From IMG/VR virus record IMGVR_UViG_2734482555_000011: 48,574 bases of DNA. One strand, 5' to 3'. This document shows, one piece after another, positions 2,794 through 15,708 of the stretch (position 1 is the first letter of the stretch; each line of letters opens with the position of its first letter). This DNA comes from a virus (lineage: Duplodnaviria; Heunggongvirae; Uroviricota; Caudoviricetes). The position numbers and the translations under genes were made by a program. The notes under the pieces are model-generated. The model saw only the letters and a list, made by a program, of their open reading frames with translations. It had not been told where the DNA came from and made no database searches.

Positions 2794-5386
2794 TTGCATA
2801 TTCCTTAGCCCAGCGGGGCAGTGATAACGTCTTAATAGCTGGCCATTCATCGGTATTGAGGCAGTCAGCCAGGGTTCGCAGATTGCGGTGATATTCCAGC
2901 TGACCTGCCAGTTTTGCTTCTTCGCCCATCATGAAAATTTCAACCGGATAACGTCCGCATTCAATAGTTGTGCTGGCAACCAGAAAAACGAAAGTTGGCT
3001 GCACTCCAAACTGTGCTTCATAACCGTCACTGTAGAATGCATCCTGAACGTGATAGCGGTAGTCGTAATAAGCGGTTTTGAATCGTTGAATATCCGCCGT
3101 AGTTTTCACGTCCATGATCCAGTGAAATTCAGGGATAATTTTGTCCGGACGGCACCGACACAAAATTGCTGTTTCAGGATCTTCCCAGTAAATTGATGAT
3201 TCAGCGTGTCCGGCGCTTTCAACAAGCCATTGCCCCAGCGGCAAAGCCATAACGCTCTGATACATGAGTTCAATTTTCCGGCCTTCTTCGGCAGTGATAA
3301 CCGTTTTTCCTGTGCTTGCGCATTCCCTCAGAAACGCTTTCTCTTCTTCTTTTCCGGAGTTTGTCCGGCGGTTAAATTCAGGTGCTACGATAAAGCGGTT
3401 ACTGAATTCTTCCGGCTCAAGTACCCGGCAGTGGAAAGCGGTTCCTAAATCGAGCGTTTTTGTCTTTGTGGTGTCCACGGGGGCATTTTTACGCCACAAA
3501 TACAGTGCCGGAGTATCAGCAATGTCATCGAGCTGAGACTTACTGACACCGGGACCCGCGTGGTAATTCTCATTCGAAATTCCGTAATAAATACCTGGCT
3601 CTATGTCTTCTACGATTACGGGATCTGCGACTTCGCCAGTTTCATCACTGCAATCGCGATGCGGATCGCTGCCAGCATTCTCATTGTGCGGATGTTCAGC
3701 GCCTTCCATTTCCTCCGGATCATTTTCCTTAGCTTCAACCTGACTCTCTTCATCGAATGTTTCCTGGTATGTTGCGTCGCCCATCACCGCACCACAGTCA
3801 GGGCAGTTATCCCCGCCAGTCTGGCCGCAGGCATTGCAGGCTATTTCCGGTTCCTGTTGCACTACTGGCTCAGGTTGATTCATATCCGGGCTGGTTTTTT
3901 CCGTTTCTGGCTGGTTCTGGTACACACAATCGCGAGTCTGGATCCCCTTTACCCATTTCGGATCGTTCGGGTCGCTAATTCCGTCAACAAATTCACCACG
4001 TGATGCAGCAAGCAATTTATCGGCATCGACAGGATTTTTTGATGGAATGTTTTTCCGGGCTTCATGGAGTTCTGCCCGCAGTTCCTGATATTTCGCATCA
4101 ACAGAATTTACCTGTGACTGAGCATCCAGCGGCTGCGTGTCCTGATGATGTTCAGTTGCGTCCGGTTCCATTGTTTCAGCCTCTCCCTGTTCAACTGCCG
4201 TTGTTCCAGATGGTTGCGGTTTTTCTTCATCATCCTGTTTTCCTTCTTCTGTTACTCGCTGCGGCATCGGGGCAGAGGAGCGACCGCAGGCAATATCCAC
4301 GATTTCCGGATCAGGGTTGGCATGATCGGTTTCAGTCAGTACTTTGTTCAGATATTCAGTGACGTGCGCGGGGATGACCTCGATCCCAATTGGTGCTTCT
4401 TTTACGGACGCAACCACGATGGCGCGGGAATAATCCAGCCCGCCAGGCATGGTGATGAATTTGTCGCGGAAAACAGAAAAGGGCGGTTTATTTTCAGCGA
4501 TAATTTCCTCAATGCGTTTAGCGTGTGCCGGATGAAGGTTATAGATGTCCAGATCCATTGAACGGGCCAGTACGCCAGTGGCTACGTCCCGCGCCAGTGA
4601 CGTCAGATCGTGTACGAAACCTTCGCCGCGATCGGTGAGGTTTCCGCCGCCAGCATTAGCACCGGAAGCCGTGCGAGTGATGTGTGAAACACGATTACCC
4701 TTCATCCACTCTTTTGTCAGCAGTCCTCGATCGGTGTAGTCAGCGTTCAGGTATGCTTCGAAAAAAGCAGTTATCAGTCCCAGGTTTGAATTACCAGGAT
4801 TAGGGAAAACTTTGTCAGTGTCACGAACCAGTTTGTGGAGTTCGCGAATTTCCAGCGGGTCGAGCAGGCTGGTTTTGTGGGAAACAGCCAGGGCAGTAAC
4901 AGCCGGTAGTTCTTCAGCCCGAGCAATGTGTAATGCCTGGAGTCCGTCGCGTGAAACGTGCGTTACCGGTTTTTCGCTGCCGTGTTGAGCAAGCCAACGA
5001 ATGGGCAGTTCCTGGCCAGAAATTGGGAGTAGCATATTCTCCTCAATCTCAGTCATGTCTTCGCCGTTGACGTTGGTATTGCCTTGATAGTGAGCGTTGT
5101 CTGGTGCTGCTCCCGGTTTTAGTTCCCATGTCATGGAGTCTTTGCTGAGTTGATAGCGTTCACTCCAGGTAAAATCGATCTCACCTTCAGCGGGCAGGTC
5201 ATTAACGACAGGAAAATTCGTGGCAACAGCTTTAAAATAGCTGCTCAGTTTTTTACCTGACTTAACGATCAGGTAGTCCAGAGTGGCACAGGTCGATTCA
5301 AAATCGTTGCTTGCCCACAGGACGACGTCAGGTTCACCGGATGATTTTTTCGCTTTCCGTAACAGGAAGAGTGGTTTTGTGCTCAT
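2786..5386 (-). CDS. recE: Exodeoxyribonuclease VIII (RecE), full length
   Basis: 866-aa minus-strand ORF, same length as K-12 RecE; the C-terminal region is the part I associate with the exonuclease fold. Plus-strand ORFs inside it are antisense artefacts. Confidence 0.9.
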
Positions 5387-11758: not shown

Positions 11759-11896
11759 ACGTTACTAGATCAAAGAGCATTAGTTCATATGTAAATTGAC
11801 ATTTTTCTGGCACAGGGGAGAGCTAGCGTGGTTGTCCGCTTTGTGCCAATAGCGGACATTGCTGGCTCATGGTATGTTAGTTTAAGGAGGCAGGTT

Positions 11897-12919
11897 ATGC
11901 CCTGTATTTCGCTGTGGTATAATAGTTGCGCAATTGATACAAGGGAGCGTTACATCGTGAAAATTGTTTTCGAGGTTAATGGAAAGAAAGTTCCACTAAA
12001 ATCTTTAAAATACATAAGCAAAAAAGATCAACTCGAAGTAATGAAAAACTGGTTCTTTGAAAACTTTGAAGATCCGGCAAATGCTTGTCCGTATGAAAGT
12101 AGAGAAGGTGGCTATGCTTACATATATGGCGGGCCGTATGATGCGAGCGAAGAACTACAATCCATCTTCGGTCAATATGTTAAATCTGAGTATATTGAGG
12201 AATTAGTAGATGAATTACAAACACAATGTTTTGACTGGTCTGGAAACTCAAATAATATAGATGATTGGTACGATGATGATATCTACGACGCTGTAACGTC
12301 TTCCGGTAATCCGTATTTAAAATTCATTGATAATATCGATAAAATAAAAAAACTTGCAAAAGATAAAACTGAACAACAGCAAAAAAACCACTTGCTTAGT
12401 TTGCTCTACACGAATGTTATTACAGCTTTGGAAACGCTTTATGTTGAGCTATTCATTAATTCTATAGAGAAAGATGATGTCTACATAGCCAATTGTATAG
12501 AAAAAGGTAAGACTGAATTTAAAGTAAGCAAAGATATTGCTGCGTTGCCTTTCAAGGGTGAACCCATCGAGAAAATTAGGGGAGAGCTAATCAGGTCAAT
12601 CAAGGAACACTTGATCAGTGCAAGCTGGCATAGCACTAAAAAGGTAATCGACCGCTATGAAGCTACATTCGATATAAAAGTACAAAAAGACTGTCCGATA
12701 GAAGCTATTGAATTGGCAACCCTCAATCGAAATCACTTAGTGCATCGTGGTGGAAAGGATAAAGAAGGGAACCTCGTAGTGATTACAGACCAGGATCTTG
12801 AAACGCTGATTGAAAATGCATCGAACCTGGCAATTATGCTCTACAACAGTTTAAATGTAGCAACGAATAAAACCACCATTTTGCAACCAGATGACAAACC
12901 GTTCATTCATGAATTTTAA
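11897..12919 (+). CDS. Accessory protein with C-terminal R-x4-H (HEPN-like) motif; candidate abortive-infection effector
   Basis: Track ORF 11828..12919, visibly AT-rich. ATG at 11897 follows AAGGAGG with a 6-nt spacer; alternative GTG at 11957 follows AAGGGAG. C-terminal region has LATLNRNHLVHRGG (RNxLxH pattern). Fold assignment is inference. Confidence 0.55.
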   Translation: MPCISLWYNSCAIDTRERYIVKIVFEVNGKKVPLKSLKYISKKDQLEVMKNWFFENFEDPANACPYESREGGYAYIYGGPYDASEELQSIFGQYVKSEYIEELVDELQTQCFDWSGNSNNIDDWYDDDIYDAVTSSGNPYLKFIDNIDKIKKLAKDKTEQQQKNHLLSLLYTNVITALETLYVELFINSIEKDDVYIANCIEKGKTEFKVSKDIAALPFKGEPIEKIRGELIRSIKEHLISASWHSTKKVIDRYEATFDIKVQKDCPIEAIELATLNRNHLVHRGGKDKEGNLVVITDQDLETLIENASNLAIMLYNSLNVATNKTTILQPDDKPFIHEF

Positions 12920-12934
12920 TAGCGCAGGTCATAC

Positions 12935-13936
12935 ATGGATATTCGCACACGAAAGACAAAATTTTTAGAGTCGTTAGATTCAACTGAAGTGATACGCAAA
13001 GCAGTAAGTCTCGCTATAGATTGCATTATTGATAATCATAATAGTAATGAAGATACCCCCTTAGTTATTACCAGCTATGATGATCTCTGTAGAATCCAGG
13101 TGCTAAATTATGTACAGGAGTTTTGCGAAGCTGCATTCCCTGATATGGATGAATATTACTTTAGTCCTAACATACTTCGCATCAACGGCAAGACTAGTGA
13201 AGAAGCTTGTATTAACTTAATTAAACTCTTAAGAAGTACAAAAGGCATGCTATTCTGGTCCGATGCCCCATCGTGGTTCGCTAGCCTCCCCGACGGATTA
13301 TTCCATGTTGTTAACATTGATCAAAAAATCGTTACTCGCGGCCTTAATAAGAAAAACTCTAAGCCGACAATAATCAATAAAGATTACAGTGTAGATACAC
13401 TACTATCAGAGCTATTTTTGAATGGCGCACACATGGAGCAACCCAACGTACACAACGTTTCTGAGGGAAACATGAAGTTCTATGATGAATGCCATGCTGG
13501 ATTAATCAGACCAATACCCGCTCCAATAGGCGCGTCATACGATGAAGAGATCACAATTAATTCTCCAGATTGGCAAAAGCTCGCGTGTGTAGCTTTACGC
13601 CGCTATCAGTCGAAGGAATGTCATGACGGAATGCAATGGGATACAACCGATCATGGTTGGACTGATGTAATCGCGTATCCATTCGTCGAAGAAATACAAT
13701 CAATGGATAATAGTGGTTATCGACAATGTTTAGTTGGGCTGGTCACAATAAACAATTCAAATGCAAATTCTCCGTACCTATCTACCGTTTGGATACATCC
13801 ATTTTATCGCAGGAGAGGGTTATTAAGTAAGTTATGGCCAAAATTACAAGAGTTATATGGAAGTAACTTCGAAATTGAGCGACCTAATGAAAATATGAAA
13901 GCATTTCTGAAAAGTGCGAAACACGCAGATTACTAA
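12935..13936 (+). CDS. Accessory protein with C-terminal GNAT-like acetyltransferase motif
   Basis: 333-aa ORF starting 15 nt after the upstream gene (operon-like), AT-rich. C-terminal LSTVWIHPFYRRRGLLSKLWPKL resembles GNAT motif A; N-terminal ~200 aa unrecognised. Confidence 0.55.
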   Translation: MDIRTRKTKFLESLDSTEVIRKAVSLAIDCIIDNHNSNEDTPLVITSYDDLCRIQVLNYVQEFCEAAFPDMDEYYFSPNILRINGKTSEEACINLIKLLRSTKGMLFWSDAPSWFASLPDGLFHVVNIDQKIVTRGLNKKNSKPTIINKDYSVDTLLSELFLNGAHMEQPNVHNVSEGNMKFYDECHAGLIRPIPAPIGASYDEEITINSPDWQKLACVALRRYQSKECHDGMQWDTTDHGWTDVIAYPFVEEIQSMDNSGYRQCLVGLVTINNSNANSPYLSTVWIHPFYRRRGLLSKLWPKLQELYGSNFEIERPNENMKAFLKSAKHADY

Positions 13937-14489
13937 TTTATGAATCAGTCTGTGGAGTTAGGGTTGGTGTGAACAAGTAGGGTAAGAGCCTCAACGTGAT
14001 GCTATGCCGACCTGCTCCCTGAGAATTCACACAGAAGGCTGCTAGCAATGTCTGCAGATCGCTCAAAGCGGACTAAAATGTTGGCTTGTTTCTGACTTAG
14101 AGCATTTAAGGAAGTGCTGGTGGTGACTGGTTGTTGTGTTCCATTTCTACAGAATAAAATCACAGAAACTATACCCAATAGTTGTATTGAATCACTGACG
14201 AGACAGCCTCATATTTATCAGGACTGGTGTGCGTCTAATACAGGGGGTTGTCGTGCTGGTTCTCAAATGTGCGCTGGCTATTGCGGCTGTAATGGCAATT
14301 TATTGTCTTGCTGTTGTTCTTATGGAGCGGCTTTCTGATTGATTACATACTGGCTAGAAAAAAGGTGTTACCTTGGTTTATCTTTGTCCGGCAAGGTGCG
14401 CTCATTAATCTTAAGTAAATTTATTGCTCAAGTATTCAGATTACTTCTTATGGTTGAAGTCTCCTGTCAATGTAGAACCAATATATTTA

Positions 14490-14556: not shown

Positions 14557-14895
14557 CTATTTTTTGGTGCTATAGACTTTTTCGCCCGAAAAGTCTGGAG
14601 CGACCCAAAAGTTAATATTAAACTGAGCATCATCGCTTAGTTCAACACGGTGCCAGTATTGTGGTGGGCTTGTTGCAAAAGCGCCAGCATTAATGACTAC
14701 TTTTATCTCCGGTTCAGTAGCATTCTCATCAGTAAAACCATAATATGTTACAGTGCCTTCCATTACGCACAACTGCCCAAAAACACCTGCTGCTGTATTA
14801 TGATGTGTTAATAACGCTGAAGGTACGTTCTCTTTTGTGAAGAACGGAGTTGAGCGTTTGATTACCCAATCTTTAGGAATTCTCTTGTGTGTCAT
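14557..14895 (-). CDS. YeaR-like small protein (DUF1971-type, by recollection)
   Basis: Track ORF 14557..14919; start at MTHKRIPKDWVIKRSTPFF... Pattern RSTPF...G.V.Y.G..DE...EP...AG.FA..PP..WH...FNI.F.VAP resembles E. coli YeaR as I recall it; needs HMM confirmation. Confidence 0.5.
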   Translation of the reverse strand: MTHKRIPKDWVIKRSTPFFTKENVPSALLTHHNTAAGVFGQLCVMEGTVTYYGFTDENATEPEIKVVINAGAFATSPPQYWHRVELSDDAQFNINFWVAPDFSGEKVYSTKK

Positions 14896-15708
14896 AACCA
14901 CCTCCTCCAAAACATGCATTAAAAATGCATCTTTTGGAGGGTTATGTCAAGCTGTTATGAAACACATAATTGATATGTTGATTAGAGGAGAAGATAGAAT
15001 AAATATGGTTGTTTTTCGTATAACTATTTGTTTTACTTTTAGTTTATGCATTCTGTGTGTTAGGAATAAGTTATTAAAGTTTAATCAAAAAATCTCGATG
15101 TAGTCCACATAGATTACTGTTACTGAACCTTATTGTGTGTATTAGTTGTGTTCTGAAATTTCAGCTTAATTATTTATGATGTATTTTTTAACGATAAATA
15201 TTTTCCCAGGATACCTTTACTGTGTATATAAATAAATTATATACGCATAAATAATGTAAAGGCGTCCTTTTAGATATATCTTATCAAATGTTAATGACTT
15301 GAGTGGGAAATATGATTCCAGCAACTTATCATGTGGCTACTTTATAAAAATAATGCCCATATAAAACAACAAGCGAAAAGGATTACGGATAAAAAAGGAG
15401 CGAGATGTGCGAACTTGTTATTTTCCATGTTTAACCACCTTAAATAATTGATGATGACGGGATGATTGCATCTGTAATGCTTTTATTGAAATGTTATGAT
15501 AAAAAAGAACTTTTGCATAACATTAAAATGTAATTTATCTAATCGTTTTTAATAATAAGTGTCGTATTTCTATCCTTGTACCAGCTATTTGATATGTAGT
15601 GTTTGTTCATGCTATGTGGGGCTTTACACCATAGCCAGTTTATTTATACTTTATTCGTCAGCCTGAACAACTGGCATCTGCTGCGCTGCGCCATCGAGAG
15701 ATTGAGAA

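Follow-up and report, generated by a model that had tools for sequence, protein, structure and literature searches.

The 48,574-nucleotide (nt) stretch of Caudoviricetes DNA deposited in IMG/VR as IMGVR_UViG_2734482555_000011, the whole of which is called the window here, carries, in an E. coli prophage, a two-gene insert that is a real anti-phage defence system. This system is already known, having been named DS-33 and functionally validated in 2026 (DefensePredictor, Science 2026). We are confident that this DNA is identical to DS-33 and forms a 2.2-kb cassette of prophage cargo with its own promoter, in which gene A (DS-33A) encodes the HEPN effector and gene B (DS-33B) an accessory GNAT protein. 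An earlier reading made from the sequence alone had proposed that a HEPN-type and a GNAT-type protein form an accessory cargo module acting against phages in a lambdoid hotspot, and the present analysis supports this proposal. The system is not undescribed, as that reading had supposed, nor are the two genes an obligate pair, since the published GNAT deletion still protects; a single effector protein is accompanied by an accessory gene. Its value as a discovery is small, the system having already been found, named, and validated. What we add is the anatomy of the cassette (where A really starts, which native promoter it probably has, and where exactly its borders lie), the evolution of the two families, the recognition of the slot as a defence hotspot, and a caveat on the published genetics, namely that the partner allele used there carries a mutation at an invariant residue.

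Counted from the GTG codon at 11957, gene A is identical to DS-33A (WP_014639476.1) at 320 of 320 residues, and gene B is identical to DS-33B at 332 of 333, the sole difference being the consensus P289 in the window and L289 in the tested allele. Gene order and the 15-nt spacing are also the same, and DS-33 is the same system as that of the window. DS-33 consists of WP_014639476.1 and WP_000354965.1, has the working identifier GNAT, and is flagged as defensive in Table S6, and its protein sequences are listed in Table S8, where the form of A shown to work has 320 amino acids (aa) (PMC13092281). The main text names DS-33 merely among four systems with HEPN domains (PMC13092281); our literature search of main texts by accession number gave no match, and DS-33 was found in supplementary tables only.

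The phenotypes are given in Table S7 of PMC13092281 as log10 protection, with two replicates per construct. Wild-type DS-33 protected against T7 (3.8/2.6), T3 (3.3/2.4), Bas67 (4.0/2.0), and Bas26 (5.0/5.9), with values of 0.8/0.1 on T5 (PMC13092281). Deletion of the HEPN gene (all values <=0.54) or the R258A mutation (all values <=0.78) brought protection near zero on all five phages, abolishing 3-5 logs of protection against T7, T3, Bas67, and Bas26 (PMC13092281). Deletion of the GNAT gene did not reduce protection (T7 4.8/4.3, T3 3.3/3.3, Bas67 4.0/3.3, Bas26 5.0/4.9, T5 1.7/0.5; PMC13092281). Gene A is thus required, as is R258, and A is sufficient either alone or with the P289L allele of B (PMC13092281). 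Cloning, a phage panel, an R-to-A mutant, and single-gene deletions, which the sequence-only reading had suggested as checks, are therefore already published (Tables S6-S8, PMC13092281). The DS-33 paper is confined to phenotypes and gives neither a mechanism nor the native context, the promoter, or the boundaries of the system (PMC13092281).

Gene A has an all-alpha HEPN fold with the R-x4-6-H motif in the last helix pair, and R258 and H263 (numbered on the 320-aa protein) are invariant in 44 diverse homologues. The peptide motifs that had been picked out from the sequence alone in the two proteins, LATLNRNHLVHRGG and IHPFYRRRGLLSKLWPKL, are both present, and they contain residues invariant among homologues, which makes them more than chance. 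Several points weigh against our view of the cassette as a natively expressed HEPN nuclease system. Gene A of the window scores 21.8 bits (E 2.5e-4) against PF18870 (HEPN/RES NTD1), below the gathering score of 27.4, and it has no match at E <=1 to PF18735 (RiboL-PSP-HEPN). The coding sequences of DS-33 were carried on a plasmid flagged pBAD, so the native promoter was not used, and no RNA target, trigger, or abortive-infection phenotype is reported for the system (PMC13092281). As for the domain assignments, the family member P0116, in which the domain is joined to a PIN domain, scores 28.7 against PF18870, above the threshold, and about 20 A homologues have precomputed matches to this family; the homologue P0101, which is 35% identical to A, scores 36.1 against PF18735 (gathering score 28.4), for which many homologues also have precomputed matches. 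Searches with PADLOC, NCBIfam, and PHROGs left both A and B without a functional name, and phmmer against PDB sequences returned no hit for A and noise only for B.

Judging from an alignment of 12 diverged cassettes (79-97% identity), the real start of A is GTG 11957, giving a protein of 320 aa, and not ATG 11897. The GTG is invariant in all 12, and its Shine-Dalgarno sequence reads AAGGAGG or AAGGGAG in most of them, with single-base variants in L003 and L099; the RefSeq product of A also has 320 aa, and its homologues have 310-320 aa. The two plus-strand open reading frames (ORFs) reported from the sequence, 11897..12919 and 12935..13936 with 15 nt between them, are present, and so is the AAGGAGG string 6 nt before ATG 11897. 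This ATG is nevertheless not conserved, being ATA in three cassettes (L096, L099, and L100) and separated from the gene by a frame-breaking indel in L003, and the string does not mark the start of A.

Because A begins at 11957, the extended -10 element TGGTATAAT at 11915-11923, which had been noticed within the longer ORF, lies upstream of the gene. It is kept as TG(G/A)TA(T/C)AAT in 12 of 12 cassettes, including two (L101 and L102) with unrelated upstream DNA, and is predicted to be the likely promoter of the cassette. The TTGACA at 11796-11801, pointed out at the same time, does exist, but it is outside the mobile unit, in backbone DNA common to phages without the cassette, and 113 nt from the -10, so the two do not belong to the same promoter. 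A consensus promoter scan of the region was uninformative. Tandem TGGTAT-N3-TAGTT elements were also observed at 11870-11882 and 11915-11927, 45 nt apart. The downstream element is the conserved extended -10, and the upstream one, which could act as a second promoter, is retained only where a cassette still has its left palindrome.

Positions 11834-14073, the cassette, make up a discrete mobile unit of 2.2 kb that has its own promoter and lies between two related palindromes of 24 nt. When the fetched loci were compared by blastn, homology blocks in otherwise unrelated contexts started at 11833/11834 and ended at 14010-14074, and in many loci the homology confined to the cassette stops at 14073/14074. 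The cassette ends form a 46-nt imperfect inverted repeat, and the motif GTCYGC-N8-18-GCRGAC has only two matches in the window, one per border. A different cargo gene lies between the same pair of motifs in phage Tritos and in strain JS316, and two metagenomic loci on enterobacterial contigs, L099 (1604, 3535, and 7482) and L100 (134, 3183, and 6650), each have three copies one after another. Coordinates of such GTCYGC-N12-GCRGAC palindromes around unrelated cargo genes of this prophage slot are 3073-3096 and 4874-4897 in L154 and 4772-4795 and 5988-6011 in L169. An interpretation of the palindromes as RNA hairpins or intrinsic terminators was not supported, in view of one-sided, non-compensatory variants, the lack of a T-tract, a negative terminator scan, and no Rfam match. 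Since the stem variants are one-sided, the palindromes would function at the level of DNA, perhaps as a site of recombination or a boundary between modules, and could mark a dedicated site of cassette exchange in Rac-like prophages. We know of no earlier description of this palindrome pair.

Gene B encodes an acetyltransferase-like accessory protein, which is co-transcribed with A and is not needed for protection, as tested with the P289L allele. The protein has a GNAT fold of the PF00583 type with motif A (R/Q-x-x-G-x-G/A), preceded by an N-terminal domain with no recognisable relative. H288, P289, and R292 are invariant in 39 homologues. F324 is also conserved, at the position where many GNATs carry the catalytic tyrosine. 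P289, encoded by the codon at 13799-13801, is shared by all 39 homologues of the alignment and by all 76 locus-encoded copies, and the leucine codon reachable from it in a single step occurs in none (0/209) of the complete Escherichia coli genomes with the cassette. The tested DS-33B allele is P289L, and the published dispensability of the GNAT gene may rest on a defective copy.

The best full-length structural matches of B are protein-lysine acetyltransferases of the HAT1, MYST, and ESCO1 types (Foldseek E 2.5e-4, with HAT1 matched over 250-300 columns), at low TM-scores (~0.25) and marginal E-values. AcrVA5, an anti-CRISPR acetyltransferase, is a precedent for a GNAT of a mobile element acetylating an immune protein. 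Gene B had earlier been linked to GNAT toxins that acetylate aminoacyl-tRNA, which would make it a second effector, and the GNAT fold with an intact motif A agrees with this idea. TacT, AtaT, and KacT, however, are single-domain toxins of ~170 aa with an upstream ribbon-helix-helix antitoxin, while B is a two-domain protein of 333 aa without such an antitoxin, and toxins of this type are absent from its top structural matches. On architecture and structural matches the tRNA-acetylating reading was rejected, and a toxin role for B is, in our opinion, extremely improbable.

Of 5,426 complete E. coli genomes, 209 (~3.9%) carry A and as many carry B, always at >=95% identity, and 205 have the full cassette; carriers include the extraintestinal and avian pathogenic reference strains APEC O1, S88, and IHE3034. 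No full-length match to the cassette was found in deposited phage genomes, and IMG/VR holds 26 viral contigs with B, 21 of them with A directly upstream. The wider A family was sampled as 80 loci from GTDB species representatives plus APEC O1 (L001). B adjoins A in only three of these 81 loci, the near-identical L001-L003, and is missing from the other 78, among them A homologues at 75-76% identity. One of the three, L002 (JAIHTM010000277.1), comes from a metagenome-assembled genome of Collinsella sp.; it is a 3.3-kb contig, 97% identical to the E. coli prophage region and with identical A and B, and has most likely been mis-binned, its origin being enterobacterial.

At >=78% identity, B homologues nearly always lie downstream of an A gene, and at <=56% they never do; the pair persists down to 77.5% (A) and 73.8% (B) identity in an unrelated context (L166). 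Distant B homologues without A lie in an integrative and conjugative element (ICE), in a prophage-like region, and in a variable island beside Abi_2. BLAST clustering of the neighbours of solo A and solo B homologues revealed no recurrent partner; those of solo A include integrase, SIR2, AbiEii, DUF4238, and ImmA/IrrE genes. B-only loci at 68-90% identity retain the cassette ends or a remnant of the last codons of A, indicating that A was deleted there, and A-only loci contain no trace of B. Judging from this distribution, both families consist mostly of solo genes, and their pairing is young and separable. The HEPN protein is a member of a broad family of solo genes found in many phyla, and the GNAT partner is a recent, separable addition.

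Natural knockouts of either gene exist. IS1 splits B and leaves A intact in E. coli SF-173, and IS1 has removed half of A and left B intact in E. coli AHB12. In E. coli MB56 (L162, 1730-5092), A has one ISSen4 copy upstream and another, in opposite orientation, separating it from B, an arrangement that resembles a composite transposon carrying the HEPN gene alone. These insertion-sequence disruptions, together with the losses in lineages, show that neither gene is addictive for the other. A toxin-antitoxin addiction module of type VII-like design, in which A would be a constitutive HEPN ribonuclease toxin neutralised by B through acetylation, would have a parallel in MntA, which neutralises HepT by AMPylation. 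Structural matches of A do include HepT toxins (8xdj, 5yep, and 7ae2) and LsoA, A is the gene preferentially lost, and the order of toxin and then neutraliser is that of the HEPN toxin LsoA and its partner. Nevertheless, SF-173 and MB56 have an intact A with a disrupted B, 78 of 81 A loci have no B and no recurrent partner, the partner here is not an MNT nucleotidyltransferase, and the published GNAT-deletion construct is viable and fully protective (PMC13092281). The natural knockouts and the GNAT-deletion strain led us to reject the classic toxin-antitoxin reading, which the viability of that strain already largely refutes, and we consider an addiction module of this kind very unlikely.

What B does in the cassette is best approached through two readings. 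The first, which we would put only a little short of an even bet, is that B is a brake or self-immunity factor tempering A. Two observations hint at a brake. Deletion of the GNAT gene raises T7 protection by 1.0 and 1.7 logs (computed from Table S7, PMC13092281), and A has been lost with B kept in at least five lineages that retain a remnant of the 3' end of A, with no A-only locus showing a remnant of B. Against this reading, the invariant residues of B are equally conserved in lineages without A, >95% of the sampled A loci (77 of 80) lack B, disruption of B beside an intact A is tolerated in two isolates, and the increase seen on GNAT deletion, which comes from two replicates, could be an artefact of expression. 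In a more specific version, B with the P289 allele would be an acetyltransferase brake or self-immunity factor for the HEPN ribonuclease, and the published result would then reflect the crippled P289L allele; this version appears unlikely to us. If true, a B brake would be a new, enzyme-based tuning of an abortive-infection effector.

The second reading takes A and B as two unrelated cargo genes, of which A is a complete one-protein defence and B a passenger enzyme with its own target, sharing the A promoter through joint capture; a candidate role for B would be that of an anti-defence or host-modifying protein acetyltransferase. This explanation is plausible, though we would wager somewhat against it. 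Solo A is the rule, solo B homologues keep all the invariant residues in an ICE (L160), beside a ddrB-ParB gene (L165), and in other mobile regions, and the A-deleted cassettes L097, L147, and L148 keep the promoter directly before B, suggesting that B is useful alone. It also agrees with the dispensability of B in the published assay and with the DefensePredictor log-odds, which are only 1.08 for B against 9.45 for A (PMC13092281). A mere passenger, however, does not readily explain why the pair stays adjacent (with a 15-nt gap or a 4-nt overlap) down to ~74-78% amino-acid identity in unrelated contexts (L166 and L093), why loss is asymmetric, or why GNAT deletion moves protection upward. As to the surroundings of the solo B homologues, that of L160 lies between transfer genes of the ICE, and that of L165 (1757-6410) adjoins the ddrB-ParB protein. 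Anti-defence genes of conjugative elements are often found in positions of this kind.

Table 1. Positions of the features of the cassette in the window, and occupants of the corresponding slot in sampled loci (L numbers denote loci, with positions in each locus).
Feature	Position	Strand	Description
Gene A	11957..12919	+	DS-33A, 320 aa: HEPN/RES NTD1, then RiboL-PSP-type HEPN ribonuclease domain; defence effector
HEPN/RES NTD1	12032..12232	+	~aa 26-92; conserved block MRxWFxxNFEDPxxxxPYESREGGYxYIxGGPY
HEPN motif R258-N-H-L-V-H263	12728..12745	+	R-x4-H; published R258A loses protection
Gene B	12935..13936	+	333 aa: orphan N-terminal alpha/beta domain ~aa 1-170, minimal GNAT domain ~aa 175-333
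GNAT motif A segment H288-P-F-Y-R-R-R-G295	13796..13819	+	Within gene B
Shine-Dalgarno AAGGGAG	11941..11947	+	9 nt before GTG 11957
AAGGAGG and ATG 11897	11885..11899	+	Start taken in the sequence-only reading; not the real start
Extended -10 TGGTATAAT	11915..11923	+	Likely cassette promoter; direct repeat D18
Weaker tandem copy of the -10, TGGTATGTT	11870-11878	+	Upstream of the extended -10
Left boundary palindrome, 24 nt, GTCCGCTTTGTGCCAATAGCGGAC	11834..11857	.	Core of left arm 11821-11866; inverted repeat I1
Right boundary motif GTCTGCAGATCGCTCAAAGCGGAC	14050..14073	.	Core of right arm 14041-14086
Slot occupant			DS-33
Slot occupant	L154 3245-4576		PDC-S15 protein
Slot occupant	L156		505-aa protein, then restriction endonuclease
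Slot occupant			BCCT transporter
Slot occupant	L167 4934-5956		DUF5677 protein
Slot occupant	L168 5120-6076		SIR2 protein
Slot occupant	L169 6328-7674 (PD-T7-1)		Hypothetical gene, then PD-T7-1 (E 3e-156)
Slot occupant	L170 4956-5852 (SMEK)		SMEK protein, then methyltransferase

The slot of the cassette follows the DUF977 gene, between the replication and nin/Q modules of Rac-like lambdoid prophages, and its left flank, made up of the palindrome and the end of the DUF977 gene, was found in full in 1,345 of the 5,426 complete E. coli genomes. Lying between the DUF977 gene and either hokD or the nin region, this site is a hotspot of defence genes at whose borders palindromes recur (Table 1), which bears out the hotspot suspected from the sequence: elsewhere the slot holds PD-T7-1, PDC-S15, SIR2, and SMEK genes. 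Some occupants have no PADLOC match, namely the DUF5677 protein, the 505-aa protein, and two hypotheticals of JS316/B-1109, and are candidate new systems. The hotspot could be mined for further systems.

The visible AT-richness of the region was borne out by measurement, the GC content being 0.34-0.43 across 11800-14000 and 0.50-0.55 in the upstream replication genes; the AT-rich stretch runs on to ~15700 and is thus larger than the cassette. Within it, ~800 nt at 14800-15700 are very AT-rich (GC 0.27-0.31) and have no convincing ORF. The segment 15341-15686 is ~74% identical to the hokD-bearing region of other prophages, and neither a hok-like ORF nor an Rfam sok/hok match was found in it. 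Just outside the cassette, a very hydrophobic, unannotated ORF of 37 aa, MRLIQGVVVLVLKCALAIAAVMAIYCLAVVLMERLSD, occupies 14229-14342 on the plus strand, with terminator-like hairpins at 14277-14296 and 14313-14331. It lies within 14074-14357, a stretch common to APEC O1-type prophages, and could encode a small membrane peptide or a type I toxin-like product. A TehB-N-terminal-like DUF1971 gene is found at 14557-14919 on the minus strand.

As to how A protects, its fold, its invariant residues, and the behaviour of solo HEPN proteins such as HepS suggest the following scheme. Gene product A would be held inactive until infection, when NTD1, which is presumed to be a sensor or regulatory module, may sense or transmit a trigger derived from the phage. 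The HEPN domain would then cleave RNA (tRNA or mRNA), probably in a dimer that unites two R-x4-H motifs, and this cleavage would shut down translation and abort the infection.

Among known systems, HepT/MntA (type VII) has an MNT nucleotidyltransferase as its partner, which is essential to neutralise the HEPN toxin, whereas the partner here is a GNAT that is dispensable and whose loss is tolerated. The gene order of HepT/MntA is the reverse of A-B. The B protein of PD-T4-2, also from E. coli, has a RiboL-PSP-HEPN domain of the same HEPN clade as A (Vassallo et al., 2022; PMC9519451), and PD-T4-2_B is listed as the best remote homologue of DS-33A, with an HHblits probability of 96.1 and a coverage of 0.55 (PMC13092281). 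The two systems differ in the partner gene and in the N-terminal domain, and the PADLOC models of PD-T4-2 match none of 44 A-family members at E <=0.01 and neither protein of the window. Another known system is HepS, the solo HEPN abortive-infection protein of the Salmonella Gifsy-1 prophage, for which the trigger is the tail-tip protein J and the targets are tRNA anticodon loops (PMC13043305). HepS and A have no detectable sequence relationship (phmmer against PDB sequences was negative), and they differ in layout, the motif of HepS being R100-H105 and A having the NTD1 domain together with R258-H263. Like A, however, HepS is a lone HEPN protein that defends without a partner and depends on its R-x4-H motif, and its gene is accessory cargo close to the replication genes of a lambdoid prophage (PMC13043305).

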